Assembly (NCBI GenBank): GCA_046538345.1
Contig: JBKHJB010000002.1
Location: 1 to 37,854, forward strand
Length of the DNA stretch: 37,854 bases
Direction of reading: 5' to 3'
DNA from: Phycisphaerae bacterium
Lineage (GTDB): Bacteria; Planctomycetota; Phycisphaerae; SM23-33
The translations under genes and the position numbers were made by a program. The notes beneath the pieces were generated by a model that saw nothing but the letters and a program-made list of their open reading frames with translations, searched no databases and was not told the origin of the DNA. Position 1 is the first letter of the stretch. The number at the start of each line of letters is the position of its first letter. Positions 2,100-17,732 of this stretch are shown one piece after another.

Positions 2100-2897
2100 C
2101 TATTCCTTCTCCTCAAGGCGGTCGACCTTGATTTCGACGTCCTCGCGGTGGCGGATCTGCTGTATTTCGCCGTCCTCCATCCAGACGATGCGGTCGGAGA
2201 CGTCGAGCATCTTATGGTCGTGCGTCGAACAGATGACGGTCACTCCCATCTCGCGGTTCATCTCCTTCATGAGATGAATTATCTGCTCGCCGGTGGTGAC
2301 GTCGAGATTGGCGGTCGGCTCGTCGGCGAGGATGATGGCGGGGGTGTTGGCGAACGCCCTGGCGATGGCGACACGCTGCTGCTGCCCGCCGGAAAGCTCC
2401 TTGGGAGTATGCAGTATGCGTTCGCCGAGTCCGACCCGCTCGAGTATCTCCACGGCCCGGTCCTGAGCGTCGTCACGCGGCACACCGGCGAAGAGCATCG
2501 GCAGCAGCACGTTCTCCACAGCAGTCATGACCTTGATGATGTTGTAGCTCTGAAAGATGTAGCCGATCTTCCGGCACCGCAGCCAGGCCAGTTCGTTGGC
2601 GTCGAGCTGGGCGACGTCTATTTCGTCGATAAAGACATTGCCGTCGGTCGGCTTGGTAAGTCCACCGACACAATTGAACAACGTCGTCTTTCCGGAGCCG
2701 GAAGGTCCCATAATGGAGATATATTCACCGGACCGGATGGACAAGCTCACATCCCGCAGGGCGTGGATGACCGCCTCGCCCATGACGTAGTCCTTGCAGA
2801 CGTTTTTGGTCATGACGGTGCAATCGACCTGCTGGTCGAGATTTGCGAACCAGTCCACATGGCCCGTTTGCTGTTGTTGCGAATTCGCGGTGGTCAT
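2100..2897 (-). CDS. ABC transporter ATP-binding protein, MacB/LolD/FtsE-type (ATPase 2 of the operon)
   Basis: Walker [11 protein letters not shown]-loop IGYIFQSYN, signature [14 protein letters not shown], Walker [13 protein letters not shown]-loop STHDH. Its ATG at 2897 overlaps the stop of the upstream permease as ATGA (2894-2897). Confidence 0.93.
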
Positions 2898-3490
2898 TTC
2901 TCACCTCGCATCGCCTCGACGGGCGGCATCTTCGCGGCGACCCACGCGGGGATGGAAGCGCCCAGAGTGGTAAGGATCATCCCGACGAAGAAAACGAACA
3001 GCACCTTCCAGGGAAGTCCGCCAAGCTCAAGCTCCGACCATATCGCGCCGCCGTGCTGCAACAACCCCAGCAGTATGGAGATAATGCCGCCGACCACGGC
3101 TCCGGCGGCGGCGCCGATAAGCCCCACCATCGCCGCTTCCAGCAGAACGCTGTAGAGCACCATGCTGTCCAGCGCCCCGAGGCATTTGATTGTTCCTATC
3201 TCACGATATCTCTGGCTGACCGACATGAGCATGGCGTTGAGCACACCGGCGGCGGCGACGATCAACGCCAGAGTCAGCATCAGATACCAGCTCTGCTGCT
3301 CGGATGTCTCCGTCTGCCGGGGCATGGTCAAAAGATACATCATGAAAGCGGTCGCCACCGTGATGGTCAAACACGTCAGAAACGACCTGAACAGACGCAC
3401 CCGCAAGCTGCTGACGGCCATCGACCAGACCACCTCGAAGCGAAGCTTCAGGTGCCCTATTTCCCAGTGGCGTACCTGCGTTTCACCCAT
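2894..3490 (-). CDS. Minimal FtsX-family ABC permease: 4 TM helices and almost no extracytoplasmic domain
   Basis: FtsX-type core SQRYREIGTIKCLGA followed by two more TM helices, ending PAWVAAKMPPVEAMR. The loop between TM1 and TM2 is only about a dozen residues (MPRQTETSEQQS). The ATG at 3490 lies 1 nt after the upstream TAG (3492-3494). The track start at 3508 is a TTG. Confidence 0.85.
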   Translation of the reverse strand: MGETQVRHWEIGHLKLRFEVVWSMAVSSLRVRLFRSFLTCLTITVATAFMMYLLTMPRQTETSEQQSWYLMLTLALIVAAAGVLNAMLMSVSQRYREIGTIKCLGALDSMVLYSVLLEAAMVGLIGAAAGAVVGGIISILLGLLQHGGAIWSELELGGLPWKVLFVFFVGMILTTLGASIPAWVAAKMPPVEAMRGEK

Positions 3491-3491
3491 A

Positions 3492-5552
3492 CTAATACCC
3501 GGTTCCAATCGAGACCCACAGGAAGTAGATTGCGATCGCCAGCATTCCGGTCAGGCCCATTCCCGCGCTGAATCCTACGGCCAGGATGGGCGCGAAGTTT
3601 GTCCATTTTTCACGGCCGAACTTCCTGGCGAAGTAGAACCGACCCAGCAGAGCGCCGATGAGCAACGGCACCGCGCGGTCGAATCGGCCTGTGAGGGTGG
3701 CGATGGCGCCGTAAACGTATTGCGTGCTGAAGCCAAAAATCGCCGAGAGTATGAAGAACGTGCACACGCCGCCGAAGGTGCCGCCGATAACCCAGGGGCG
3801 TAACGACTGCTCGAACATCAAGCTCCCTTCCTGCATCGAGGACGCCCAGAGTGCTTTCATCTGGGCGTGCTGCGGCCAGAACTTCTGGGCGAACGGGTAG
3901 CTCTCGGACGGAATGGGACCGAGGGAGTTGATATAGCTCCAGAAGATGAACGACGCTATCAGCATCAGCGGGAATACCAGCAGCTCGGCCTTGAAGATGG
4001 ACGTAAACTTCGTCCGCGTGAGCTGGCAAATCCTCAGCTTGTCGGCCATTCCTCCGAAGTTATGCAACGGCAGCGGGGCGAACCATATATCCACGTATTT
4101 GTAGCCGGACGTGAAGATGGCCGTTTCCATCACGAACGGAACACCCGCGTATTGACCGGCGATACCACTCATTCGTGCGTTGATATAGGTGTTTATCGGT
4201 GTCCAGATGAAGGCGAAACCTATCAGCCAATAGACGCTGAAACCCTTCTCGCCCTCGGGAATATTGGAGTTGACAAGGTGGTTGGTGAGGACCACGAAGC
4301 CCACCGACGCAATCATCCACACCAATACCGCCAGCCAGGTGGGTGGGTCGCCGCGGGGCTTGTCTCGACGTATCAACCCCCTCACGCTGGCAGTCTCGGG
4401 CTGGTCTTTCCGTCGTGCCCTGCTCAGCGCGCGGATCACCCCCACCAATCCGAACGCGAAAACGGCAAAAGACACGCCGATGGACACAGACAGGTACAGA
4501 TCCACCGTGTTTGAGACGTGCGTCTGTACGGCGTCCATCTGGCTGTCCCAGTGTGGCAAGTACCCGGCGGGCTGAAGGAAGAACGGATTGACCACCAGGT
4601 GCACCAGCACCGCCGAGCCGACCATTCCCAACACGATCCGCCAGGGCAGCACGCAGCCCACCAGCACAAGCGCCAGGTTCATGCTGATGGCGATAGCCGC
4701 GGCCGGGAAAATATGATTCAGGTCCTGCGTGAGGTCCCAGAACGGGATGGGTATCAGTTGCAGCGGTTCGTCGAGGAATGCTTTAGAGAGAATCGGAATC
4801 GCCATGTAGAAGATTCCGAACAGCGCACCTCCGACGATGCCTACCGCGAAGCAGTACTGGCGGAAGCCCTTCTTTCGCTGTTCCTGGCTGCGTTCGGCCA
4901 GCGCGATCGCGCCCTCTGCGTGGACCGGCGCCAGCGGGAACGGCAGCCGCTCCACATCCGCGGTGAGTTTATACGCCAGGAATCCCAGCGAAAGCTCCGT
5001 AAGCTTAGAGAGCGTCATCGCCGAGACGATCACGGCGACAACGGGCTGCCATGCAGGCCCGAGAAAGCCCTGCTGGTAGGCGACATCACCATACGGAGCG
5101 AACCAGTCCGGCACCTGGTGGGCGATTCCGAAGTTACTGAACGCCTCGGAGTTACGCAGATATCGCTGCCAGACCAGCATGGCGAACACGCCGCCACCCA
5201 GCGCCAGTCCGCCCATGATGTGGGTAAGACTGCTGACGGTGTACTTGAGTATGTACAGCTCCTGCTTGCGGAGCGTTACGAAGCTTCGTCGCGCAATTTC
5301 CACAAACAGGATGATGGTGACCCACTCGGCCGCCGTACCGAGGTCCTGACCGATCATCAGCCCCATAAAGATGACGCCCGGCAGCATGACGAAGGCCACG
5401 AAAAACGCGCCCAATATCGTCCGCCAGGTGAAACCGTCGTCGTAGGGCTCATGCTGCATCGCCTCGATGGAAAACGAGGCGTCGTAGAAACTCTCGCCCT
5501 GCTCGTCCGTCTGCTGTGCCGGCTCGTTGTTCTGATCGGGCTTCTCAGCCAC
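3492..5552 (-). CDS. Polytopic integral membrane protein, OPT-superfamily-like, many TM helices (paralog of the C-terminal part of the 11311..14559 product)
   Basis: 686-aa ORF, hydrophobic throughout. The motif ERLPFPLAPVHAEGAIAL resembles the OPT-family L-P-[FY]-P-x-G-x-A signature. The GTG start at 5552 abuts the TAA stop (5553-5555) of the giant gene and has AGGAGA upstream. An internal Met at codon 32 is an alternative start. Confidence 0.7.
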   Translation of the reverse strand: MAEKPDQNNEPAQQTDEQGESFYDASFSIEAMQHEPYDDGFTWRTILGAFFVAFVMLPGVIFMGLMIGQDLGTAAEWVTIILFVEIARRSFVTLRKQELYILKYTVSSLTHIMGGLALGGGVFAMLVWQRYLRNSEAFSNFGIAHQVPDWFAPYGDVAYQQGFLGPAWQPVVAVIVSAMTLSKLTELSLGFLAYKLTADVERLPFPLAPVHAEGAIALAERSQEQRKKGFRQYCFAVGIVGGALFGIFYMAIPILSKAFLDEPLQLIPIPFWDLTQDLNHIFPAAAIAISMNLALVLVGCVLPWRIVLGMVGSAVLVHLVVNPFFLQPAGYLPHWDSQMDAVQTHVSNTVDLYLSVSIGVSFAVFAFGLVGVIRALSRARRKDQPETASVRGLIRRDKPRGDPPTWLAVLVWMIASVGFVVLTNHLVNSNIPEGEKGFSVYWLIGFAFIWTPINTYINARMSGIAGQYAGVPFVMETAIFTSGYKYVDIWFAPLPLHNFGGMADKLRICQLTRTKFTSIFKAELLVFPLMLIASFIFWSYINSLGPIPSESYPFAQKFWPQHAQMKALWASSMQEGSLMFEQSLRPWVIGGTFGGVCTFFILSAIFGFSTQYVYGAIATLTGRFDRAVPLLIGALLGRFYFARKFGREKWTNFAPILAVGFSAGMGLTGMLAIAIYFLWVSIGTGY

Positions 5553-8500
5553 TTAGCCGCTCTCCTGGATTTCGCTGTGCTGGTCACGGAACAGTTCGGC
5601 GCCCTCGGTTATGTAGTTCATACGCGCGTCGTTGTCGAGGTTACGCCACAGAAGGAACTGGTGCCTGACCAGGTCCATGAAACCGTAATTCGTACGCAAC
5701 CATGCGTCCTCGGTGCCGGAGAAGCGATGGAGATTCAGTTGCACACCGAAGACTCCCTCGTTCTCGGTGGGAACTATCTTCATCTCCATCTTCTGAGCGA
5801 CGTCGAGGTCGTACGGACTGAGCCACATATCCGCTCGGATCCGTAAAGCTTCCTCCTCGCCGCTGAGCATATCCAGCTCTATATTCCGGCAGTTGAAGCC
5901 CGGGCTGGCCGCCTCGGTGTGATTCAAGAGAAACCGCCGGAAGAACGCCATCATACCCACGGCGTTACCGCGGGTCAGTGTGAAAGGCAGGTCGAAATGG
6001 ATGCTGTGATCCGACGGCTCGGGCAGTTCCCACTTACCCATGCCGCTGGGCGCGGCCAGGCGGGCGGCCTTGTTGGCGGGCACGAGAGTCGCCAGCAGCA
6101 CCACCACGCCGGTCAGCATAGCCAGTCCCAGCGCCGAGAGAGAGGTGAAGTTCAAGCTCAGGCCCGCCAGGAACTCCGGGTTCACGTTCTGCACCCAGCC
6201 GACAATGTTGGCGAACAACAGGCCGGAAAAGGTGCCGAAAACGATACCCAATACGCTGAAGACCGACGATTCGCTCAGCAGCAGGAAAGATATCTGACCC
6301 GGTGAAAGGCCGATCGCGCCGAGCATGCCGACCTCACCCTTTCGCTCCTCGACGTTGGCGAGCATCGTGTTCAGCACAATGAGTATGCAAAGGAGAACCG
6401 GGACGACGATCTTCGCCAGACCGCCGATGCTCGAAACGTTCTTCGCGGTCACCAGCGCCGGCTCACCGTCCCTGGTGCCGAAGACGGTTCTGTTGGTCCG
6501 CAGCGCGAAGTCCTTGTAGAACTGCGCCTGGTCCTGGTTTCCACCGAAACGCACGGCCACCGAGCGATTCTTGGCTTGCACCTCGTCGGAGGCGGCGTGC
6601 GGGACGATCGCCAGATCTTTCCAGCTCATGTGGTACAGGGGCTTTTCGTTGATTATATCCCCACTGCCGGCGCTGGCGGTTATGGCACTGCGCCGATAGT
6701 CCACCATCGCAAGCGACTTGCCGTTGACGTCGCGAATGCGGTCCGCGTGGTCGGTGTCCAGTATGCCGACGACGCGCCATTCGCGGTTTCGCATCAACAC
6801 CTTGGGCAACTCATCCTCATCGAGGCGGTTGCCGTCCTCGTCGTAGATCATATCGGGCGTTATGCCGACCGCCTCTGCGCAATTGTCCGGCAGTATGACC
6901 GCGAATCGCTCGGCCGGAATCCCGCGCGACCTGTCCTCCGCACGGAACCATTCGTTGTTGCTAACCGCCTCGTTCAGACCGCTGAAATCCGGCTCGTTCG
7001 GCATAAACGTCATTACGCCCGTGATGATGTCCATCCGGTCGCCGTGGCGGACCTTGATCTGATTGACCCCCTCACGGTCCATATTGTTTCCACCCTCGAC
7101 CTCGAGATAGTAGCCACGGGTGGTCATCTCGTGCTCCGGTCCGAACTCGCTGTAAACCGCCGAGACAAAGGTGTCTTTCAGTTCCGTCCAGGAGAAGTTG
7201 CGGAACATTATCCCTTCGTACTTCGGAGCCAGCGGGTCCACCCTCCGCCCGGCTACGTCCTGCTCAAGCGGTACGGGGCGAATGTGCATCTCGTCTTCGC
7301 CGCGGACCGATACAAAGGTAATTATCGAGAACGTCAGCACGGTTACGGTAAAGACGGTCAGGAACGTCCTCGCCGGTCGTTTCTTGAGGTTCGAGACACC
7401 CAGCGAAAGGGCCGTTCCCAGCGACCCCATCAGACTTATCTCGTCGCCTTCGACCTCACCGGCGGCCGCCCTGGCGCGACGCACCAGCACCTCGAACCGC
7501 TGGTAACTCAAGACCAGCACGATCAGCGCCATCAATATCATCGTGAAGGCGATCATCACCACGAACGGCGAGACGGCAATGTCGAACGCCGGGTGGAAGA
7601 ACTTCATGAACACCACGCCCAGCACAAAGATTATCGCCGTTCCCACCAGCCGGGCGACGATGCTGCTACCGCCAATGACCAGACGCTCCAGAAACGCGCT
7701 GGCCGGGACGAGCAGACCCATGAGTATTACCGCACTGAAGACGGCCTCGCGACCCAGCTTCAGGATACGCGGCAGGTTCTTGACCAGGATACCCCAGCCC
7801 TCTCGGGCAAGCCCGACGGACGACTGCCAGTCATGCTCTTCGGCGGCCTGGCGAGACCTGTCTATTTTCGCCCGGCTACGTTCCAGCGCGTCATAGACCG
7901 AGGAGTCATGAATCCCAAACTGCTCATAGAGGTCGTAGCGGTACCGCGCGATGCGGTACATATCCTCGGCAACCCGCAGAGGCGTCAGCGGGAGCACCAG
8001 GTTGCGGTCATTCCCGTCGGGACCTACGGCGTAGCCCTCGCCCTTGAGGTCCATGACTTCCTTCGTCTCCTGGTCCTTGGCTTTCTCGGGCAAATCGCCG
8101 ACGAGCAACATCTTGTACTGCATGCTCTTCTGCGCCAGCACTCTGGCTCTGCGACGCTCGGGCTTGTACTGCTCGGGATCGAATCCGGGAATATCCTCCA
8201 GACCCGGCAGTCCCTCCCCCAACTGGCGTTGCTCGTACGACATATACAGAACCGTAGAATCGACATCCTGCTCTGAATACTGCAACTGCGGATTGTCCAG
8301 GGCATAGTGCCGGGGTGAACCATTGCGGACGGCGTCAACCACCCTCAGATCCTGGCGGTCCCCAGCAGTTCCTCCGATGGGCTGATAGTCCATCGGGTCC
8401 GGACCGGGAGCGAACACCCACGGGTACACATCGGCGAGGATCAGGTTCTTTTCCTCGTCTTCACCGTCGCGGAGTTTGAATGTCATCGACTGCTGCTGGG

Positions 8501-11294
8501 TGCCGAGCTGTCCGCGATCCATCGCCTTGTCAAACAGCGCCCTGTCGCGGTTGAGGCGATATGCGTAAATTAACGGCTCGCCCTTGCTGACGCTGTAATC
8601 GACCGTCTCCAGCGGCATACTGTAGCTGCCGTTCTGCAGCGTAATCCGCAGTATGCCCCGGCGAGACCCCATGTAGGTAGCGCTATTCTTGGTCGCGCTT
8701 GCCCAGTCAACATTTTTCAGAGCCGGGTAGTACACCCAACTGCGCGCCACAGGTGCGGTGGCATTGATGCCCGAGCGGATGTTGTACTCAACGGCCGCTC
8801 CGAGCAGGCGTCCGAAAGCCGGTGCATCCACCTTGTCGGGAGCGAGAGAGTCCGTGGGATTCTCCACACCCAGCTTGGTGAGCAGCAGCATAGTCCGCGC
8901 CTGGACGGAAAGGTTCTCGAAGTCCGTATGCTCCGGCGTGTCGTGCGGAGTGTCCAGCAGTTCGCGGCGGTCATTGTATGTCGAAGCCGGCAGCAACGCC
9001 ACATTACCCGCGGTCCAGAACTCAGAGTAGTGCGTCGCGCCTTCAGGGACGACCATCGGGAACTCGCTCTGGTCCTCGTCCCGTAACCAGGACCACTGCT
9101 CGTCCCAGCCGGCGCGTATGCCGGCAAAACCCACAACCTTGCTGAATCTCTCGGCCAGTCGTTCCGCATTGCCCGCACCGGCCGGTCCGACGTCTCTGAA
9201 CTCTTTGGCTGTATTCATCCCCACAGACGACGAGCCCTGCGACAAGTCGTAAAGCCATGCCAGAACCGGCTCTTGTCCCTCGGGATGCAGCAAGTCCATG
9301 CATTTACCGACCACCTCGATGTTGTTCTCGTGGAAGGAATGCGTTTCGACTTCCTCAGCAAGCTCCCGCCTTAATCTGTCGGCAAGGTCTTTCTGGGTAA
9401 CATCGTAGTATTGGAAATACTCCCGGTGCTCTTCTTCGCCGAGACGCTGCCAGAACGCCTTGATGCGCTCAGCCCAGCTCCAGCTCTGGTTTCGGAGTGT
9501 CTCGCGACGAATGTCACTGAGGAAGTCCATCCACTGCTGATAGCGGTCGATAACCTTCTGCATCGACGCGTATCGCTCGTCGTGTATCTCCTTGAATTTC
9601 TGCTCGTAGAGGTCCTCGTCCCGCTCGCGGAGGTCGGAAAGCTCGTCTCGAAGCTGCGAGTCGAGCGCTTGCTGACGTTTGATAATCTCCACGCGGGTTT
9701 CGGCGATGGTGACTCGCGCCTTTTCGAGCTGGCGCGGCAGCCAGTCCATACCGAACCACAACGCGACCTCGTCGTCCAGCGGGGCCTGCTCGGCGTCATC
9801 CAGCCAGTCGGCGACAGCCCTGTATTTGGCAATCTTCTCCTGCGGGTCCGCGACAAATGGCGATCCAAGCCCGTCTTCCTTGTTCAGCAGAACATATTCG
9901 CCGAATGTCCGACTGCTCAGCCCGCCGACGTTTTCGGCGTCCAGGAACGCGAAGACTACGCCCTTGCGGCGGATTACCGACTCGCTGGTCGCCAGGTGCT
10001 CCATCGCCGTCAACGCCACGGCTAGATTGGTCGCCACCTTCGCCCCGTGCGGGGCGCCCGGAACGACAGAGACGCTGTCTATGGGCACCTGAACCATGAC
10101 CGTGTCGTCGGCGTTGGGGATGGTCAGAACCTGCCCCGGCTGGAGATAACGCGTTTCGAGGTCGTTGGCCTCGGCTAAGGCGTCGGCGGAAAGAGCGTAG
10201 TCCGAGGCGATGCGACTGAGAAGCTCGCCTTCCTGGATGGGCACCGGGTCTTCCTGGTTTGGTACCAGCAGATCGTCAACACCGGTCAGCTCCGGCGAAT
10301 CCAGTCCGTTGTCCTCCATCAGACGGCTCGGACTCACGCCGTATTCTGTCGCGATGCGGTCCAGCAGATCGCCCCTGCGGACCTCGTATTTGACCGGCTC
10401 GGTGGGCGGAAGGTAGGCGAAGATGGACTCAAAACGGCGGTTGGCGTAGGTGTTGCCGCCTCGCAGCCGACACTCGCTGCCCTGTGCTATCTCCGGCTCG
10501 TCGCCACCGTCGCGATATACCTTGCGCGTAGCGTGGCTGCGGATTTCCCGACCGGTCTCCGCGTCGACATAGAATCGCGGCATCGGCACCGGCGTGTTGC
10601 AGAACAACCCCTCGGCTTTCTCGCGGCTTACGCGGTCGTCCTCCACAACCACCACGGCCCGGGCGCCAAGCGACATCAGACGGTCCCAACGTCGCCCGCC
10701 CTGGAAATCCATCAGGACAATAGCGCCGTCGAGATCCAGCCCCTTGATCTCGTCCCAGTCTCCGATACCCACGTCGATAAGAGGCCCGGAAAGCCCGTCC
10801 TTCGGGCACAGCGAGGGCATCGCACCGTTCGGCCAGAGCGGCTGGAGGACCCAGCTCTCATCCCCGACCGTCAATGTAGCGGGCTTCCCTCTTTTTTCGG
10901 GGTCTTCCAGCCGGTCCAGGGAAACAGGCACAGCCACCCGCCCCTTCAACGAACCGACGTACTCAACACCATCGTCCTGGAGATCCTCTATCCGCTCCAG
11001 CAGATAGTTGTGGATCGGGGCACGTCCCTGCTCGTCGTAGTCGCGAGACCCGATACCAAGGTTGCCGCCGCAGCGCGACAGGATTTGCTCGACCTGTTCC
11101 CGAAGCGCCTCGGCCGAGGTCACCTCCTCGATCTCGTCGAGTGACTCCTGGGAAAGTACGGCCGTGTTATCCAGACGGCGCCTTTCCAGGGATGAGAGTT
11201 CGTCCGCTCGTCGCGCGCTATAGTCGGTCTGCGCCGACGCGGCGACCGCCTGCAAGAGCAGCACGCAGAGGAGGATCGCCGATTTCTTGATCAT
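5553..11294 (-). CDS. Giant (1913 aa) envelope protein. Order of parts: signal peptide or anchor, M28-like/PA ectodomain with 2 LysM modules and a coiled-coil insert, 3 TM, a MacB-like module (TM, ~290-aa ectodomain, FtsX TM triplet), and a 164-aa cytosolic tail.
   Basis: ATG at 11294 with GGGAGAG upstream. N-terminus MIKKSAILLCVLLLQAVAASA/QT. PA-like block LWPNG...GAIVLMDFQGGRRWDRLMSLGARAVVVVED. Two LysM-like blocks (YEVRRGDLLDRIATEYGVSPSRLMEDNGL...LLVP and IQEGELLSRIASDYALSADALAEANDL...QVLTIP). FtsX core VEERKGEVGMLGAIGLSPGQISFLLLSES. MacB-type N-helix LSLGVSNLKKRPARTFLTVFTV. Confidence 0.9.
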   Translation of the reverse strand: MIKKSAILLCVLLLQAVAASAQTDYSARRADELSSLERRRLDNTAVLSQESLDEIEEVTSAEALREQVEQILSRCGGNLGIGSRDYDEQGRAPIHNYLLERIEDLQDDGVEYVGSLKGRVAVPVSLDRLEDPEKRGKPATLTVGDESWVLQPLWPNGAMPSLCPKDGLSGPLIDVGIGDWDEIKGLDLDGAIVLMDFQGGRRWDRLMSLGARAVVVVEDDRVSREKAEGLFCNTPVPMPRFYVDAETGREIRSHATRKVYRDGGDEPEIAQGSECRLRGGNTYANRRFESIFAYLPPTEPVKYEVRRGDLLDRIATEYGVSPSRLMEDNGLDSPELTGVDDLLVPNQEDPVPIQEGELLSRIASDYALSADALAEANDLETRYLQPGQVLTIPNADDTVMVQVPIDSVSVVPGAPHGAKVATNLAVALTAMEHLATSESVIRRKGVVFAFLDAENVGGLSSRTFGEYVLLNKEDGLGSPFVADPQEKIAKYRAVADWLDDAEQAPLDDEVALWFGMDWLPRQLEKARVTIAETRVEIIKRQQALDSQLRDELSDLRERDEDLYEQKFKEIHDERYASMQKVIDRYQQWMDFLSDIRRETLRNQSWSWAERIKAFWQRLGEEEHREYFQYYDVTQKDLADRLRRELAEEVETHSFHENNIEVVGKCMDLLHPEGQEPVLAWLYDLSQGSSSVGMNTAKEFRDVGPAGAGNAERLAERFSKVVGFAGIRAGWDEQWSWLRDEDQSEFPMVVPEGATHYSEFWTAGNVALLPASTYNDRRELLDTPHDTPEHTDFENLSVQARTMLLLTKLGVENPTDSLAPDKVDAPAFGRLLGAAVEYNIRSGINATAPVARSWVYYPALKNVDWASATKNSATYMGSRRGILRITLQNGSYSMPLETVDYSVSKGEPLIYAYRLNRDRALFDKAMDRGQLGTQQQSMTFKLRDGEDEEKNLILADVYPWVFAPGPDPMDYQPIGGTAGDRQDLRVVDAVRNGSPRHYALDNPQLQYSEQDVDSTVLYMSYEQRQLGEGLPGLEDIPGFDPEQYKPERRRARVLAQKSMQYKMLLVGDLPEKAKDQETKEVMDLKGEGYAVGPDGNDRNLVLPLTPLRVAEDMYRIARYRYDLYEQFGIHDSSVYDALERSRAKIDRSRQAAEEHDWQSSVGLAREGWGILVKNLPRILKLGREAVFSAVILMGLLVPASAFLERLVIGGSSIVARLVGTAIIFVLGVVFMKFFHPAFDIAVSPFVVMIAFTMILMALIVLVLSYQRFEVLVRRARAAAGEVEGDEISLMGSLGTALSLGVSNLKKRPARTFLTVFTVTVLTFSIITFVSVRGEDEMHIRPVPLEQDVAGRRVDPLAPKYEGIMFRNFSWTELKDTFVSAVYSEFGPEHEMTTRGYYLEVEGGNNMDREGVNQIKVRHGDRMDIITGVMTFMPNEPDFSGLNEAVSNNEWFRAEDRSRGIPAERFAVILPDNCAEAVGITPDMIYDEDGNRLDEDELPKVLMRNREWRVVGILDTDHADRIRDVNGKSLAMVDYRRSAITASAGSGDIINEKPLYHMSWKDLAIVPHAASDEVQAKNRSVAVRFGGNQDQAQFYKDFALRTNRTVFGTRDGEPALVTAKNVSSIGGLAKIVVPVLLCILIVLNTMLANVEERKGEVGMLGAIGLSPGQISFLLLSESSVFSVLGIVFGTFSGLLFANIVGWVQNVNPEFLAGLSLNFTSLSALGLAMLTGVVVLLATLVPANKAARLAAPSGMGKWELPEPSDHSIHFDLPFTLTRGNAVGMMAFFRRFLLNHTEAASPGFNCRNIELDMLSGEEEALRIRADMWLSPYDLDVAQKMEMKIVPTENEGVFGVQLNLHRFSGTEDAWLRTNYGFMDLVRHQFLLWRNLDNDARMNYITEGAELFRDQHSEIQESG
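6048..7370 (-). other. MacB-like permease module 2 of the giant protein: TM1, ~290-aa extracytoplasmic domain, FtsX TM2-4
   Basis: Hydrophobic RTFLTVFTVTVLTFSIITFVSV, then a soluble segment, then GGLAKIVVPVLLCILIVLNTMLANVEERKGEVGMLGAIGL...LLATLVPANKAARLAP-type FtsX ending. Confidence 0.8.
10116..10388 (-). other. Two tandem LysM (peptidoglycan-binding) modules inside the giant protein (aa ~303-393)
   Basis: Both repeats follow the LysM pattern: Y/I-x-V/-x-x-G-D/E-x-L-x-x-I-A-x-x-Y, then a helix, N-x-L, and a final hydrophobic strand ending in P. Confidence 0.75.
10590..10877 (-). other. PA (protease-associated) domain-like insert in the giant protein (aa ~140-235)
   Basis: LQPLWPNGAMPS...LSGPLIDVGIGDWDEIKGLDLDGAIVLMDFQGGRRWDRLMSLGARAVVVVED matches the PA-domain pattern (G-x-I-x-L-x, R-G-x-x-x-F, K-x-x-x-A-x-x-x-G-A-x-x-V) by eye. 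Confidence 0.6.
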
Positions 11295-11310: not shown

Positions 11311-14300
11311 TCAATAGACCGAAGGACTGTAAGGCATGTGATCCTGGAACTGCTTGAGGATGCCCTCGGTACCGGCCTCGCCGACCTCCGCGGAGATCGA
11401 CGCGATCAGGTCCACACAGTTCCACAGGAACACGCACATCACCGCTCCGACCACCAGGCCGATGAAAAACGGCTTCGCTCGCTTGTAAGAATACATGCCG
11501 CCGTACTTGACGACCAGTTTCTTGATAACCCAGGCCACCAGAACACTGCCCCACAGCCAGGAGGTCTCACCGGCGATTCCGGAACCTCCCTTGTAGTAGG
11601 GCGAAACCCATTCGTAATAGACGGACAAAAGCAACAGCATGTATCCCAAGGGGTGGAACGGGAACCGGAGGAACCTGTTGCGAAGGAACGTCAAAACAAG
11701 CAGAGCGCCCGCACCGACCATCATGAAGTGGATCCTCACCCAGTGCGGGTCGGTAAACTGCCCCAGTCCGACCTCGCCCAGGAAGTGAGAGACCCACAAC
11801 GGATAGTGCGCCAGGCCCTGGCTGCTGGTGGGGCCTTGTCCGCTGACGCCGGCATCGGCGCCGGCGTAGAATTCATTTCCGTAGTAGTAGGAAAACGCCA
11901 GGAAGCTCACCATCCCGACCGACAGGGCCACCAGGAACGCCACCAGCCCCGCCACCGCTATTGTTTTGTATTTTACCTTATTCCGGCGGGCCAGTTCAAT
12001 GTTCTCGAGATGCTGCGGGAGCGTCCGGAAAAGCAGCGTCACCGGCAGGAAAACGATGTTCACAAACAACGCGTAAGTCTTGGCGCCGGTGGCGCCGGTA
12101 AGCCCGAATACCATGGGGAACTTGCTGTACTCGTAAGAACAGTGGTGTGTAGGCAGTCCCGTTTCCGCACGGACCCTGGCGCCCGCGATGGTCTGCGCCA
12201 TCACCAGAAGCGCAAACAGCGCCAGGAACCAGGACGACGCCGGCGAAAAGCCCATATTCCACAGCAGCAGCAGGACAACGACCGGTAGAACGATCAGTCC
12301 GAAAAGGTTCAGCCGACGCGGGATAAAGTGGTCGGCCTGAATCTCCGAATCCTGCCGGCGGCCCAGGCGGAAGCTCTTGTAAAGAGTTACCCCGGTGAAC
12401 GCCACCACCGCGCCAAGCATCTGTTCCATGGGGAACGGGAACATCCGTCCCGCGGCCCAACCGGTGTAAACGCTGTCCCGCGGAACCTGATCCATCGATA
12501 TGTTGGTGAAGAAGATTATGAAGCTGTAGATGAAAAACAGCACCCATACCGAGAAGCTGATTTCCAGACTGACCAGGAATGCAATACCGATAACTATCGG
12601 CGAAAGAACAAGCTGGACCTCGTCCATCTCCTTCAGGACACCGGTCTTGAAGACCTTATCGGAGATATTATAGGCCATCAGGTACTCGCGAGAGACCAGC
12701 CCGTAGTGCCCGGCGGCCTCGGCGGTCAACCAGATAAGCCCTATTCCCAGTCCCAGCAGGAAAATGGGATTGAACTGCATTCGCCGTTTGGGCGGATCCC
12801 GCGGGTCCACCGACAGCTCAAGCTCCCAGTCGTGACGGATAATGCTGTCGGCCACGTCCACCAGAGGGAACGCCAGATTCTCCCGCTCCACCCATTTGCG
12901 CCGCAGCCACTCGGCCATGCACATCAGGAACAGAAAGACAGACGTGAACAGCAGCCCCCACATCACCATCGGACGAACCCACAGATGCCACGGCAGGTCT
13001 CTGAACAGCGTTCGAATGTTCTGCCTCAAGGGCACATCCTGCTTGCGTCTCTGCTCGTCGAGCGTCCTCCACAAGCTCTCGTTGAAGCCATCGAGGTTCT
13101 GGTCGGGCGTCCCGCCACTGCCGTCCTGTCGCCGAATCGCCTGCCGCTCCCGCCGGGTGAGACGATAGACGAAACTATTGCGGAGCTGGTCGAACTCCGC
13201 ATCGTCCATCTGCTCGTAGCTGCTGAGATAGTGACTCGACAATCGATCCAATACACGCCGAAAGTCCGAGTCGCTCAAAGAGGTAACCTGTTTACGAATA
13301 TCCTCGAACCGCTTTTCGAGCCACTGTTTCTGCTCGGTGAGCTTCGAGTGGCGCTGCTCATCGAGCCCCTCGACTGTGAAATCGATACGCTCCTTGCTGT
13401 CCACATCGAAGCTCTCGTAATTGACCGGAATCAGACTGGCCGCGAACTCGCTGGTATTGACCAGCTTCTCGGGCAGTTCCTCGGCCGCCTCGGCGCTGCG
13501 TTCCAGGGTCTCCTGATATCGCTGCCGCAACAAGCCCGCCAGCCCCATCCGCTCCAGCGCCTCGCCCGCTTTCGCGCCGCGAGCGCCCTGCTCGTGTCGC
13601 TCGGCCAGCTCGATAATCCTGCGCAGTTGATCCGGCCCCATTCGGCGTATGTTCTCGGTGAGTTCCTCTATCTCCTCCCGGGTCGGTTCAGCTTCCCGGG
13701 CGGTTTCACCCGCCTGAATCGCGTCCAACCTCTCCGCCTCGGCTTGAATCGCCTCCAGCAGGCGTTGAGCGGGCTCGCTAAGCTCATCCAGCACTTCGCC
13801 CTCGGGCGCGTCAACACCCGGCGCCGTTGCGGCTTCTGGGATTCCGGGCTTGGGTTCGTCGGCCCGCTCGGCCGCACGCTCCAGCAAAGCCCCCAACTCC
13901 AGCGACTCAAGGGCATCCGGGTCGGCGACGGCCTGTATCTTCGCGGCCTCGTCGGGAGACAAACCCTCGGCGACTTCTGTGAGTCGCTCAATCCCTTCAC
14001 TGTCGGGTTTGTTTTGACGTGCCTGTTCGGCCTTTTCCAGCCGTATTAATCGCTGCGACTCCAGCAACAACGCGGCCGCCGCCTTTCGGCGGGCCTCCTC
14101 CTGTTCTTTGATTATTTCGTCGTCGCGCAGCAGCCGAAGAAGGCGGTCGGACTTGTTCCACGCCACCCCCTTCTTGGTCGGAACCAGCGGGAACCAGTCT
14201 TCGTTGAGAACGTTGTAGGCGGTCCTGTAGGTGCTGGTGCCCTGCTCGAGATACTCGCGCATCACGGCGTTCATCGTCAGGAAGCACTGCCGCACCATGC

Positions 14301-14559
14301 CGATATTCATAACCGGCACGGAAATGGTGAGCATGCTGTAGAGAATGACCAGACTGGCCTTGCCGACAATCGGTCTGAGAAACCGCAGCACCGCCAGCGC
14401 CAGCACGATACTGAAGATGATTCCCACCGCCCAGCCGACCGGAGTTGCCGTCTCCAGGTCGAGATTGACCGTCATGATCGTAAGGAACTGGCTGAGCGGG
14501 GCGATCAGGGCGATAAGGAACACGCCCACAAGCACCGTCACCACATGTGACAACTTCAT
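11311..14559 (-). CDS. Large polytopic membrane protein (1082 aa): 3 N-terminal TM helices, a ~420-aa charged alpha-helical soluble insert, then an OPT-like multi-TM body
   Basis: ATG at 14559 (MKLSHVVTVLVG...) is preceded by AAGGAAG. The track start at 14598 adds a basic, non-hydrophobic extension. The insert is rich in E/R/A/L (EEARRKAAAALLLESQRLIRLEKAEQARQ...). After it comes the motif WVERENLAFPLVDV and more than 12 hydrophobic helices. Stop TGA at 11311-11313. Confidence 0.85.
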   Translation of the reverse strand: MKLSHVVTVLVGVFLIALIAPLSQFLTIMTVNLDLETATPVGWAVGIIFSIVLALAVLRFLRPIVGKASLVILYSMLTISVPVMNIGMVRQCFLTMNAVMREYLEQGTSTYRTAYNVLNEDWFPLVPTKKGVAWNKSDRLLRLLRDDEIIKEQEEARRKAAAALLLESQRLIRLEKAEQARQNKPDSEGIERLTEVAEGLSPDEAAKIQAVADPDALESLELGALLERAAERADEPKPGIPEAATAPGVDAPEGEVLDELSEPAQRLLEAIQAEAERLDAIQAGETAREAEPTREEIEELTENIRRMGPDQLRRIIELAERHEQGARGAKAGEALERMGLAGLLRQRYQETLERSAEAAEELPEKLVNTSEFAASLIPVNYESFDVDSKERIDFTVEGLDEQRHSKLTEQKQWLEKRFEDIRKQVTSLSDSDFRRVLDRLSSHYLSSYEQMDDAEFDQLRNSFVYRLTRRERQAIRRQDGSGGTPDQNLDGFNESLWRTLDEQRRKQDVPLRQNIRTLFRDLPWHLWVRPMVMWGLLFTSVFLFLMCMAEWLRRKWVERENLAFPLVDVADSIIRHDWELELSVDPRDPPKRRMQFNPIFLLGLGIGLIWLTAEAAGHYGLVSREYLMAYNISDKVFKTGVLKEMDEVQLVLSPIVIGIAFLVSLEISFSVWVLFFIYSFIIFFTNISMDQVPRDSVYTGWAAGRMFPFPMEQMLGAVVAFTGVTLYKSFRLGRRQDSEIQADHFIPRRLNLFGLIVLPVVVLLLLWNMGFSPASSWFLALFALLVMAQTIAGARVRAETGLPTHHCSYEYSKFPMVFGLTGATGAKTYALFVNIVFLPVTLLFRTLPQHLENIELARRNKVKYKTIAVAGLVAFLVALSVGMVSFLAFSYYYGNEFYAGADAGVSGQGPTSSQGLAHYPLWVSHFLGEVGLGQFTDPHWVRIHFMMVGAGALLVLTFLRNRFLRFPFHPLGYMLLLLSVYYEWVSPYYKGGSGIAGETSWLWGSVLVAWVIKKLVVKYGGMYSYKRAKPFFIGLVVGAVMCVFLWNCVDLIASISAEVGEAGTEGILKQFQDHMPYSPSVY

Positions 14560-14617
14560 GCCGCTTCCTTTATGCCTGGCCCGCCATCGCGGGCACACGC
14601 CTATTACGGGTGGGAAG

Positions 14618-15358
14618 TCACTGTTCCTGGTCGATCGAGCCGACCGAGATATTCAGATCCTCACGCTCGACGATCCGCTCGACCTGTCCGTCGCGCAGAT
14701 ATACCACGCGGTCGGAAACGTCCAGCATGCGATGGTCGTGTGTCGCCGAAACGACCGTCACGCCCTTCTCGTCGCTCAGTTCGCTGAGCAACTGAACGAT
14801 CTCGTGCCCGGTCTGGGAGTCCAGGTTCCCTGTCGGTTCATCCGCCAGCAGCAAGCTGGGGTCGTTGGCCATCGACCTGGCGATCGCAACTCGCTGCTGC
14901 TGCCCGCCGGAAAGCTCTCCGGGAAGGTGCTTGAGTCGGTACTCCAGTCCCACGCGAGTCAGCACCTCCGCGGCTCGCTGTTCGGCGGCGTCCTTGTCCA
15001 TGCCCAGTATGCGCATGGGCAACATCACGTTGTCCAACGCGCTAAACACCTCAATCAGGTTGTAGTTCTGGAAGATGTACCCGATGTTTACGCATCGCAG
15101 GTACGCCAGCTCCGGCGCAGAGAGGTCCAGCAGGTTCCTTCCGCCCAGGTGGATGGTCCCCTTGGTGGGAAAGTCCAGGGCGCCTACCATGTTGAAGAAG
15201 GTGGTCTTTCCCGAGCCGGAAGGACCCATCAGTGAGATATACTCGCCCTGGTGGATGTCCAGGTTGATCCCGCTGAGCGCGTAAACGACTGTGTCGCCGG
15301 TCTTATAAACACGCTCCAGGTCACGGGCCTCGATGAGAATCTCGTCGGTCTTTGGCAT
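14618..15358 (-). CDS. ABC transporter ATP-binding protein, MacB/LolD/FtsE-type (ATPase 1, first gene of the operon)
   Basis: Walker [49 protein letters not shown]. The first ATG is at 15358 ([19 protein letters not shown]). The track start at 15436 is TTG and adds an atypical extension. Confidence 0.92.
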
Positions 15359-15480
15359 CGTCTCGTGCGTGTCTTTGCGCCGGGCCGCCGGACCGCTCGA
15401 CCCTGGGGCTTGAATGCAGACAATCGGGGCTTTCAAGTCCGGCTCGCCGCGTCGGAACCGGACACGCTGGATACATCCGG

Positions 15481-15605: not shown

Positions 15606-17732
15606 TTACTTCTCGAGCCGCAGCCACCGACCTCCGCAACGCGGAAGCTCCAGCGGTTCGCCGAGATTCGTTTCCTCGCCGGTGACGGCGTCCTCGGCCC
15701 GGCGGTACGCCAGATGCTTCGTGTCCAGTAAAACAGTCCGCTCTTCGGCGGGGTTGATGAGAAAATAATGGTCCGCCGCCGGTCCGACCACGCGGTACAC
15801 CAGCGCGCCCTCGCACGCGAAAGGAGGTTCGATCGCCCCCAGCGCGTCGGCGACGAGCCAGTCGGCTTCTTCGCTATCGGGCGATTCGAAAGCCGTCAGC
15901 GATCCGTCGAAGCCCAGCACGACGGCGGTGCCGTCGCCGAGTGTGTTCTCGGTTATCGCCGCCTTGTCGTCGTCGTAGGTGTCCACCACGCGGGCACTGG
16001 TCGGCTCCAGGTCGGCAACGAACCCCTCCAGCTGCCGACCACGCAGACGACGCGGAACGTTGCGCGAATACTGGAAGTCCCGCAGAATGCAGCCGAACGT
16101 CTGCTCGAACAGCGCCCCTTTGTCACTGTCCAGCAGTCGGCCGTACTCGTCCATCCAGCCGCTGGGCAGGTCGATCACCAGCCGACCACCGCGCCGGACA
16201 TACCCGTTGAGAATCTCCAGCAGTTCCTGGTCCAATGACAGGATGGCCGGGAGATAGATGACCTTGTACCTGTCTGCTAGTCCCGCTCGCAGGTCGCGTC
16301 CGGAGACGTGCTCGAAAGGCACGTTGCGCTGCTGGAACGCCCTGGCCGAGCCGATGCGGGCCTGGACGGGCATTTCCTTGTACTTCTCGCGCCCCACGAC
16401 GGAGGCGGCCGCCCACATGGCGTCGCTGTCGAAATCGGAGAAGACTCCAACCAGCGGCTCCTTCTGCGACTGCCAAAGCTCGTCGCGGAAGCGCCTGGCG
16501 GCCTGACCTATACGACCGGCCTGTCGAGCGCGTTCGGTGACGTTGTTGTTGCGGTCCAGCAGTGCGAACTCGCCCGCCTCCCAGCCGGCCGTCCGGGCGC
16601 TCCAGCACCAGAACCCGAAACCCCGGAAGCCGGCGGCAAGGTAGCTGAGCATAAGCTGGGTCATCACGTTCTCGTCCACGGTGAAACCGGGCGTCTCGGC
16701 GGCCGCGTCGGGCGTCCAGCCCTTACCGCCGGAAAGTTGCTGGGGTCCGCCGGTGGACTCCCACGTTGCCGACCAGCCGCCCTTGAACCAGTCCGCCGCC
16801 AGCGACGCCTGGAGATACACCGCCCGCGGAACCTCGAAGTTGGTCTCCTCAAAATGCCACGAAAGGTGCATCGACGGATAGAACGACCCGTAATCCGCCA
16901 TCAGCTCGGCTATGCCTTCCATGTCCGTCGCCCTGGCGGCAAAAGGCAGGAACAGGCCCATCTCTCCGCCGGCGCGGAACGGGGCGTTGGCGTCGGAGGC
17001 GCAAAAACGCTCGGCGCGCCGGCGAACGCGGTCGAGGAAAACGTCGGCCTTGAAGCGCAGAATGTCGCGATAGTGGCGGTATTCCTTTCTTGGGGCCTTG
17101 CGGATGTTCTCGCGAACTTCGTCCCAGCTCTGCCAGTCCATGTCTCTGCCGCCAATGCCGGCGTGCTGGTAGTTCCACGCCTCTTTGAGATTCTCGACAG
17201 TCGAATAGGTTTCTTTCAGCCAGTCCACGAACGCGTCAATCGCCCCGTCTTCAAGCTCCATGTCGAAGCTGAAAGGAACTGCGCCTTCACCAGGTTGGTT
17301 GGCGGCCCGGCCTCGTACGGGCGGAGACTCTATCCGCCGCCGCATGACCTGCTCCTGATGGGCAAGAAATTTCTCGTTGGAGCGAATCTCCTCGATGGGC
17401 GCATCCGGATCGATTCCCAGCTTGCGGAGCAGCTCCTCGGAAAATTCCCATCCGCCCTCCCCGAACCACCAGGGGATGATACCCTCGTCCAGGGCCATGT
17501 GCTGAACCTTCTTGCGATCCGTATCCGGACACAGCAGCAGACCTTTCAGGCAGGTAAACCCCAGCTCTTTCATCACCCGGAAATGCCTGCGGATATCATC
17601 TTCGTCCATTCCGGGCCGTTCGATGAAGACCACCCCTACGGGCATGGGGCGAATTCGTCGGAACTTACGCTGGCGGGGAGTGTCGTGTCGAGTCAGGTAC
17701 GATTCGGATACTTTCGCGGCGTCGGACGGCAT
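15606..17732 (-). CDS. GH42-like glycoside hydrolase (TIM-barrel domain plus beta-galactosidase trimerisation-like domain)
   Basis: 708-aa ORF with ATG at 17732 preceded by AGGAGA. N-terminal DIRRHFRVMKELGFTCLK resembles the GH42 N-terminal barrel. The middle block YKVIYLPAILSLDQELLEILNGYVRRGGRLVIDLP resembles the GH42 trimerisation (GATase-like) domain. No signal peptide. Confidence 0.5.
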   Translation of the reverse strand: MPSDAAKVSESYLTRHDTPRQRKFRRIRPMPVGVVFIERPGMDEDDIRRHFRVMKELGFTCLKGLLLCPDTDRKKVQHMALDEGIIPWWFGEGGWEFSEELLRKLGIDPDAPIEEIRSNEKFLAHQEQVMRRRIESPPVRGRAANQPGEGAVPFSFDMELEDGAIDAFVDWLKETYSTVENLKEAWNYQHAGIGGRDMDWQSWDEVRENIRKAPRKEYRHYRDILRFKADVFLDRVRRRAERFCASDANAPFRAGGEMGLFLPFAARATDMEGIAELMADYGSFYPSMHLSWHFEETNFEVPRAVYLQASLAADWFKGGWSATWESTGGPQQLSGGKGWTPDAAAETPGFTVDENVMTQLMLSYLAAGFRGFGFWCWSARTAGWEAGEFALLDRNNNVTERARQAGRIGQAARRFRDELWQSQKEPLVGVFSDFDSDAMWAAASVVGREKYKEMPVQARIGSARAFQQRNVPFEHVSGRDLRAGLADRYKVIYLPAILSLDQELLEILNGYVRRGGRLVIDLPSGWMDEYGRLLDSDKGALFEQTFGCILRDFQYSRNVPRRLRGRQLEGFVADLEPTSARVVDTYDDDKAAITENTLGDGTAVVLGFDGSLTAFESPDSEEADWLVADALGAIEPPFACEGALVYRVVGPAADHYFLINPAEERTVLLDTKHLAYRRAEDAVTGEETNLGEPLELPRCGGRWLRLEK

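Follow-up and report, generated by a model that had tools for sequence, protein, structure and literature searches.

Inactive homologs of the M28 aminopeptidases are already known, among them the transferrin receptor (TfR), nicastrin and nicalin, as are pseudo-hydrolases controlled by an ATP-binding cassette (ABC) system, for which FtsEX-EnvC is the example. TfR is a zinc-less binding protein, and the type VII ABC systems FtsEX-EnvC, -PcsB, -CwlO and -RipC control hydrolases of the cell wall. The type VII systems (FtsEX, LolCDE, MacB) are a known bacterial route to ATP-powered mechanical work beyond the cytoplasmic membrane; in the cases known to us, the effector is a separate protein. Their conversion of cytoplasmic ATP hydrolysis into periplasmic movement has been described as mechanotransmission (PMC5985334). 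Here we analyze a 37,854-nucleotide stretch of DNA (the whole of it is called the window below) from an uncultured Phycisphaerae-like bacterium, in which one open reading frame (ORF) of 1,913 amino acids (aa), the target protein, carries a PA-containing M28-type ectodomain, its fold intact, on a type VII ABC permease. By profile alignment, three of the five canonical zinc ligands of the ectodomain are lost.

The ORF lies at 5553..11294 on the minus strand, as do all features given below unless stated otherwise. An earlier note on this DNA had drawn attention to window positions 8865-11042, which correspond to aa 85-810, as an M28-like scaffold split by insertions and bearing apparently degenerate zinc ligands. 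As judged from the ORF translation, Pfam and homologs, the whole chain consists of a signal peptide, the PA/M28-like ectodomain, three extra transmembrane (TM) helices, a MacB/FtsX-type permease and a cytoplasmic C-terminal domain. What appears to be new is that a zinc-less PA/M28 ectodomain, interrupted by LysM and helical insertions, is fused in cis to a MacB/FtsX permease within this operon. We found no published description of such a protein, and literature searches on DUF6785, on M28 plus FtsX, on bacterial nicastrin homologs, and on FtsX-like permease plus LysM in Phycisphaerae returned no relevant paper.

The Protein Family

About 60 full-length homologs of 1,700-2,000 aa (34%-78% identity) occur in metagenome-assembled genomes (MAGs) of Phycisphaerae, Opitutales and Puniceicoccaceae, and because these exist we take the ORF to be real. 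Their database labels are generic ("LysM peptidoglycan-binding domain-containing protein," "FtsX-like permease family protein"). Some ten proteins of Latescibacteria and Gemmatimonadota, more distantly related, are automatically annotated as Peptidase_M28 plus FtsX. A single-protein scan of the GTDB species genomes returned as closest species-level genomes only a pair of Phycisphaerae MAGs, one with 78% and the other with 50% identity. When the wider family was searched for among 1.84 billion proteins, 50 clusters matched at E ≤ 1e-30; at E ≤ 1e-10 there were 488, a number that includes LysM-only proteins. Residues were counted column by column in 56 close and 10 distant homologs, and 67 further cluster representatives from the 1.84-billion-protein search, each at least 1,200 aa long, were aligned as well.

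Fold of the Ectodomain

The M28 scaffold proposed in the earlier note is borne out by significant family-profile matches and by the predicted fold. We built a family alignment from the homologs and cut out the M28 core; searched against the PDB, the core profiles matched nicastrin (2.1e-6), the Aeromonas/Vibrio aminopeptidase (AAP; 1.8e-5 to 3.7e-5), YwaD (4.6e-5) and nicalin (1.1e-4). Escherichia coli Iap matched the family at E = 1.6e-9 in a one-sequence search. An AlphaFold2 (AF2) model of aa 23-1180 has a mean predicted local distance difference test (pLDDT) value of 93.6 and a predicted template-modeling (pTM) score of 0.92. Its top Foldseek matches in the PDB are all PA-containing M28 proteins at probability 1.0, which include BSAP/YwaD of Bacillus subtilis (6hc6, 4.9e-11, template-modeling score 0.55 on the target), 2ek8 (1.2e-10), TfR (7.7e-10), GCPII (~3e-8) and PaAP of Pseudomonas aeruginosa. 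An absence of M28 or PA similarity is thereby ruled out.

On the native target sequence, Pfam Peptidase_M28 (PF04389) stays below the gathering score (E = 0.0045, 17.2 bits against a cutoff of 21.3, aa 394-465) and reaches 23.0 bits when the core is artificially spliced; a PDB search with aa 1-810 as a single sequence returned LysM only. Among 40 spliced family cores, 18 match Peptidase_M28 (best 1.4e-13) and five match Pfam Nicastrin (PF05450; best 3.1e-5). The target core itself has no Nicastrin match at E ≤ 0.01, Peptidase_M28 being the only match at that level, and its relation to the Nicastrin family is, as judged from sequence, one of resemblance and not of membership. The N-terminal half of the core (aa 394-480, 9855..10115) is covered by Pfam M28 and by the alignments to AAP, nicastrin and E. 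coli Iap. The C-terminal half (aa 670-832, 8799..9287) was delimited by AF2 topology, the span of the Foldseek matches and conservation; at the sequence level, a 32-sequence profile of aa 671-821 found no M28 match in the PDB, nor any match to E. coli Iap, for which all filters were switched off.

A PA domain is inserted in this fold, as the earlier note had claimed and as the family profile and Foldseek support, but we estimate its boundaries to be wider (aa ~125-295, 10410..10922) than the aa ~140-235 originally given. Pfam PA (PF02225) is not matched by the single target sequence; with the family profile, matches were obtained to aminopeptidase 2ek8 within its PA part (residues 88-148, E = 3e-10) and to residues 43-221 of NAALADL1. 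A WPNG motif in the domain (aa 154-157) is near-invariant in the family alignment. The residues preceding the PA insertion (aa 23-124, 10923..11228) form, in the AF2 model, helices at the N terminus and the opening alpha/beta segment of the M28-like domain, NAALADL1 aligning from chain residue 43. After the core, one or more beta-rich domains and a three-helix bundle at aa ~1100-1180 (together aa 833-1180, 7755..8798; AF2 and segment lengths) lead into the membrane, and this segment is found in all relatives, including those without LysM.

Zinc-Ligand Columns

The motifs on which the earlier note had built its by-eye alignment are found in the translation at the residues claimed: VPIDS (403-407), GAPHGAKVA (413-421), FLDAENVGGLSS (450-461), LYDLSQG (681-687) and LDTPHDTPEH (780-789). 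In the hidden Markov model (HMM) alignment to AAP, H416 stands opposite P113, G417-A418 opposite G114-A115, K419 opposite D116, V420 opposite D118, E454 opposite E151 and N455 opposite E152, with AAP D117 an insertion relative to the family, flanked by K419 and V420. The alignment to Iap, an active enzyme, pairs P404 with the His of AHLDT, and E454 and N455 with the two leading Glu of GEEEG; it places the Asp117 column one residue off relative to the AAP alignment. Both alignments put P404 at the His97 column and E454/N455 at the E151/E152 columns, in agreement with the proposed replacements of His by Pro and of E-E by E-N. D406 lies at the Asp99 position of AAP. The proposed replacement of Asp by His416 stands only in part. 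The Asp is indeed lost, but the register was off by about three residues, Asp117 falling at A418/K419/V420, and the GA anchor together with the alignment to AAP, where H416 is opposite Pro113, rules out H416 as its counterpart.

These losses are general among the 56 close homologs. The His97 column reads Pro in 33, Arg in 17, Asn and Met in two each, and Asp and Thr in one each, with no His; the Asp117 column (419) has 35 Lys and six Arg among other residues, with no acid. The Glu152 column is variable (N18, T13, H12, A5, S4, V2, G1), and an E-E pair is present in none of the 56, of the 10 distant homologs or of the 67 further representatives. The catalytic Glu151 column, by comparison, holds Asp in 30, Glu in 25 and Asn in one.

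The two remaining ligands fall in the C-terminal half. Asp179 of M28 proteins ends a strand; D683, which is Asp in 46 of 56, ends the strand of aa 677-683 in the AF2 model and may occupy the same position. In the last motif, the near-invariant part, L-D781-T-P-x-D785-T, can be retained: it fits H-T-x-x-D-T with Asp in place of His, and D781 is found in 56 of 56. Neither H784 nor H789 survives as a candidate for the last His ligand, as 784 is variable (H18, R16, A11 and others) and 789 is mostly Arg. Fold and motif indicate that the His256 column most likely reads D781. Since this half gave no M28 match, and hence no HMM alignment, the Asp179 and His256 equivalences are inferential. Taken together, the alignments indicate that three of the five canonical zinc ligands (His97, Asp117, Glu152) are lost while the general-base Glu is kept, as the note's claim of degenerate ligands implied; a fourth is probably lost, and on this reading of the columns the canonical co-catalytic zinc site cannot form. 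We infer that the label pseudo-peptidase, and with it binding rather than hydrolysis, may apply, but the strictly conserved set of replacement residues makes a rewired metal or catalytic site possible.

Conserved Residues at the Old Active Site

Conservation in the LysM subfamily is 96%-100% at D406, H416, D452, D/E454, G457-G458, S461-R462, N774-D775, D781 and D785 (H416 in 54, D452 in 56, D/E454 in 55 and D781 in 56 of the 56 close homologs). Such near-invariant polar residues at the old site argue that the pocket is under selection. It could serve for ligand binding, or it could contain a rewired metal site.

The LysM-subfamily signature is absent from 54 of the 67 further representatives, which have conserved residues of their own at the same columns: the His97 column is Tyr in 38 and His in 5, the Asp117 column is Glu or Asp in 47, the catalytic-Glu column is His in 47, and both C-terminal columns are Asp. 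This set could be a non-canonical metal site. Five neighboring positions differ together between the two groups, reading P/R, K, D452, D/E454 and H416 in the LysM subfamily and Y, E/D, S/G, H454 and P416 in the wider superfamily. A coordinated switch of this kind argues for a selected, functional site. Members of the wider PA/M28-like-FtsX superfamily (homologs P0097-P0197) are ~1400-2000 aa long and have no LysM; a few of them (P0098, P0099, P0101, P0173) combine PHGAD with DAHH.

Insertions in the M28 Core

The two LysM modules claimed for aa 303-393 score well above the Pfam gathering threshold (PF01476, E = 2.4e-18, 66.3 bits against 20.9) and match LysM tandems in the PDB, 4uz2 being found at 3.1e-7 with the single sequence and at 4.1e-18 with the family profile. 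LysM 1 (aa 303-344, 10263..10388) is matched by Pfam LysM and LysM3_LYK4_5, and LysM 2 (aa 353-393, 10116..10238) is the best stretch for Pfam LysM; both are covered by 4uz2. The pair is inserted in the loop preceding the "HxDS" strand. Most family members have two modules, five have one, and three close members and all distant relatives have none.

The other insertion, between M28 motifs 3 and 4 (aa 481-669, 9288..9854), was delimited from the AF2 model, insert lengths and a weak 3.7-residue periodicity. The earlier note had described a heptad-rich coiled coil of ~185 aa at aa ~481-665. A helical insertion is indeed present, all-helical in the AF2 model, but the heptad-like periodicity is weak, a value reached by 19 of 300 shuffles, and we dropped the description as a canonical coiled coil because this periodicity is not significant. 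In the model, the insert follows the "EE" strand as a bundle or hairpin and precedes the strand that D683 ends; its long helices span aa 508-551, 560-600 and 634-669. Superfamily members differ in the length of this insert, which can be as short as 7 or as long as 266 aa. As aligned, both insertion sites are hot spots across the family.

The Permease Half

The remainder of the protein is a MacB/LolC-like type VII ABC permease. Its core (aa 1296-1747, 6054..7409), identified by Pfam, PDB profile and Foldseek, runs in the order cytoplasmic N-terminal helix, TM1, a periplasmic domain of ~285 aa, and TM2-4, as hydropathy and AF2 indicate. The Pfam FtsX C-terminal domain matches aa 1631-1746 at E = 2.6e-16, and the permease part of the family profile finds YtrF, LolF, LolC and MacB in the PDB. 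A second AF2 model, of aa 1080-1913 (pLDDT 87.7), matches MacB (6e-9), LolE (1.1e-8) and LolC (~1e-8) in Foldseek.

Three additional TM helices (aa 1181-1270, 7485..7754), recognized by hydropathy, AF2 helices and conservation, connect this core to the ectodomain. They contain a near-invariant HPAF motif (aa 1233-1236) that is kept even in distant relatives. At the other end of the chain, the signal peptide comprises aa 1-22 (MIKKSAILLCVLLLQAVAASAQ; 11229..11294), from a hydrophobic segment at 1-25 and a cleavage site inferred from an A-x-A motif. The signal peptide and the three extra helices together imply that the ectodomain and the MacB-type domain both face the periplasm.

The chain ends in a conserved cytoplasmic alpha/beta domain (aa 1748-1913, 5556..6053; AF2 and conservation), for which Pfam and NCBIfam scans of the whole protein gave no family match. 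W1824, Y1828, D1829, W1865, R1867 and W1883 are near-invariant in it.

Operon and Genomic Neighborhood

The ORF is part of a tight operon, with spacers of 16 and 0 nt on its two sides. An ABC ATPase of LolD/MacB/FtsE type (272 aa, 14618..15436; Pfam, NCBIfam) is followed by a DUF6785/DUF6784 membrane protein (1,095 aa, 11311..14598; Pfam) that ends 16 nt upstream of the target start codon, and, directly after the target stop codon, by a 686-aa multipass membrane protein (3492..5552). The DUF6785/DUF6784 protein, which here contains a charged helical insert of ~350 aa, has no PDB relative, and the 686-aa protein has no Pfam (even at E ≤ 10), NCBIfam or PDB match. Then come a 204-aa protein with the Pfam FtsX C-terminal domain only (2894-3508), a second ABC ATPase (265 aa, 2100-2897; Pfam) and, at the operon end, a 704-aa ORF (2-2116) with no Pfam match even at E ≤ 10. 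Neither the 686-aa nor the 704-aa protein showed similarity to the DUF6785 protein or to the target in pairwise BLASTP.

We compared the window with four other contigs, L001, L003, L006 and L007, from Phycisphaerae and Verrucomicrobiota. The first four operon genes are kept in order in all four, making five contexts with the window, the homolog in each being followed by a counterpart of ~683-689 aa. The ATPase, the DUF6785/6784 protein and the ~685-aa protein form a conserved module with the target in every close context. DUF6785 is also found beside a LysM-less relative from Gemmatimonadota. The pair of 204-aa FtsX protein and second ATPase recurs in L001, L006 and L007, which suggests, by analogy, that the giant and minimal FtsX subunits may form a heteromeric permease pair like LolC/LolE. 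L001 has a 668-aa counterpart of the 704-aa ORF at the same position.

Glycoside hydrolase (GH) genes adjoin the module in several contexts: a GH42-like gene in the window (15606-17732) and in L001 (3560-5686), GH42 in L007 (17461-21538), and GH28/GH10/GH2 in L006 (16858-21427). They may point to a link with glycan use or may merely reflect GH-rich genomes. Elsewhere in the window, on the plus strand (24124-27639), a 1,171-aa ORF has a sodium:solute symporter domain only at aa 703-1105, its ~700 N-terminal residues being without a Pfam match.

Proposed Role

With a probability of roughly 0.55, we read the protein as a non-catalytic, peptidoglycan-tethered receptor moved by ATP-driven mechanotransmission, built as the M28-type ectodomain of a type VII ABC permease. 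The PA/M28-like ectodomain would be a ligand-binding receptor or clamp and not an aminopeptidase, as in nicastrin, nicalin and TfR, and in this subfamily the LysM pair, with its predicted binding, would tether it to periplasmic peptidoglycan. The LolD/FtsE-like ATPase of the operon would power MacB-type mechanotransmission via the four-TM core and the periplasmic domain, and the motion would reposition or open the covalently attached ectodomain. If the motor does move the attached ectodomain, ATP hydrolysis would perform mechanical work on a bound periplasmic ligand. That ligand would most plausibly be the free end of a peptide, belonging either to the cell wall or to a partner protein, held in the conserved pocket (E454 corresponding to nicastrin E333), and the DUF6785/6784 and ~685-aa membrane subunits would be expected in the same complex.

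Several observations weigh against this reading. Neither the wider superfamily nor three of the close members have LysM, so peptidoglycan tethering cannot be the ancestral function. The equation of D683 with Asp179 and of D781 with His256 rests on fold and motif only. The GH neighbors hint at a nutritional rather than a cell-wall role. Finally, the old active-site region has not decayed, and its conservation fits ligand binding and equally a rewired metal or catalytic site.

Such a site, made of H416, D452, D/E454, D683, D781 and perhaps D785, would work with one or two metals or by direct action, in which case the ectodomain would be a peptidase or amidase gated by ATP, its substrate being the peptidoglycan that LysM holds. 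We consider this possible but doubtful. The near-invariance of the replacement residues, the catalytic-base Glu/Asp kept in 55 of 56, the joint switch of five positions between the LysM subfamily and the wider superfamily, and the existence of His/Asp-rich intermediates (PHGAD...DAHH) all speak for it. However, there is no His at either canonical His column, Lys or Arg stands at the bridging-Asp column in 41 of 56, D683 is kept in only 46 of 56, and two proteins that are not enzymes, nicastrin and nicalin, are among the closest relatives by sequence for which structures are solved. The M28 fold does occur in enzymes whose metal site is altered, mono-zinc glutaminyl cyclase among them, but the triad of that enzyme type (the Asp117, Glu152 and His256 equivalents) reads K419, N455 and D781 here. 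An ordinary active M28 aminopeptidase whose ligands were mis-aligned by eye would account for the fold and the catalytic Glu; with Pro at His97, Asn at Glu152 and no acid at Asp117 in the AAP and Iap HMM alignments, and no E-E pair in any of the 56 close homologs or 67 further representatives, it is hardly credible.

The module might alternatively capture substrates for uptake, extraction or export, the LysM and PA/M28-like domains binding environmental N-acetylglucosamine (GlcNAc) glycans, muropeptides or peptides and the cargo being handed to the DUF6785/6784 and ~685-aa proteins, with force from the ABC motor as in LolCDE/MacAB. This is unlikely in our view. It would suit the strict co-encoding of the multipass membrane proteins, the optional nature of LysM within the family, and hosts that, judged from MAG names, are polysaccharide degraders of the Planctomycetes-Verrucomicrobia-Chlamydiae (PVC) group. 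GH genes do adjoin the module in the window, L001, L006 and L007, but they are abundant in genomes of these lineages, which makes the adjacency weak evidence. Nor is a solute-binding protein or outer-membrane component conserved in the module, and import is not a known function of type VII ABC systems (PMC5985334).

A broader extension of the receptor reading, which we put forward as speculation and think improbable, is that PA/M28-like-FtsX fusions are a widespread but so far unrecognized prokaryotic counterpart of the nicastrin and nicalin ectodomains. Their zinc-less pocket would capture free peptide termini while the motor pulls, extracts or gates the polymer (a peptidoglycan stem peptide in the LysM subfamily), or the pocket would have been rewired (H416/D452/E454/D683/D781) into an ATP-gated catalytic center. 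An effector of ~1,150 aa fused in cis offers a single-chain model of the coupling between motor and load, and a zinc-less PA/M28 effector could show aminopeptidase pockets re-used as receptors, and whether such re-use predates eukaryotes. To our knowledge, the envelope biology of Phycisphaerae and Verrucomicrobiota (Opitutales, Puniceicoccaceae) MAGs is poorly understood; the module is an entry point to the functions of three co-encoded membrane proteins, DUF6785/DUF6784 among them.

Comparison with Known Systems

Nicastrin, a subunit of gamma-secretase, is the best PDB match of the M28-core profile of the target family (4uis at 2.1e-6, 5a63 at 3.5e-5; nicalin at 1.1e-4). The same zinc ligands are lost in it, and target E454 aligns with its E333 and target GGLSS with its DYIGS. 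The significance of E333 and DYIGS has been described (PMC2647162). In nicastrin and nicalin, as in the target, the ectodomain is attached to a multi-TM machine. The target differs from nicastrin, which is anchored to the protease by a single TM helix, in being bacterial and fused to an ABC permease, and from both proteins in its LysM and helical insertions and its own conserved H416, D452 and D781.

The analogy with TfR drawn in the earlier note is well founded, in that TfR is among the top Foldseek matches (7.7e-10), although the nearest solved protein by sequence profile is nicastrin, likewise an inactive M28 homolog. TfR, GCPII and NAALADL1 share with the target a PA domain inserted in the M28 fold. 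The target lacks the C-terminal helical dimerization domain of TfR and has a helical module inside the M28 domain instead; GCPII, in contrast, is an active di-zinc enzyme, and its strand that we take to read DAEE reads DAEN in the target. The PA-M28 aminopeptidases (BSAP/YwaD 6hc6, the Aneurinibacillus enzyme 2ek8 and PaAP 8acg) are the target's best structural matches. They are secreted, active di-zinc enzymes of ~400-500 aa, whereas the target is without three of the five ligands and is a 1,913-aa membrane protein.

FtsEX-EnvC, -PcsB, -CwlO and -RipC resemble the target in several respects: an FtsE/LolD-type ATPase is paired with a permease of FtsX type, the periplasmic side bears a long helical element and a hydrolase fold that is catalytically degenerate, and there is a link to peptidoglycan (LysM in the target). 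The likeness to EnvC suggested in the earlier note thus holds as an analogy, a degenerate hydrolase fold coupled to FtsX, and goes no further. In EnvC the degenerate domain is of M23/LytM type and belongs to a protein of its own; in the target it is of M28/PA type and is fused in cis via three extra TM helices. No M23/LytM match was found in the target, NCBIfam DipM scoring 34 bits against a cutoff of 900 through LysM only, and the Joint Genome Institute (JGI) label "MepM/NlpD" on one homolog (P0004) is probably driven by LysM in the same way. No amidase partner was identified for the target, and its permease, with a large periplasmic domain, is closer to MacB/LolC than to minimal FtsX.

MacB and LolCDE are matched by the C-terminal 620 aa of the target, by profile and by fold, and share with it a co-encoded ATPase. 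The conserved module differs in having no MacA/TolC or LolA-type partners, and the target in its 1,270-aa N-terminal extension and its extra cytoplasmic C-terminal domain. The second FtsX-type subunit and second ATPase of the operon, for their part, recall the heteromeric arrangement of LolC and LolE.

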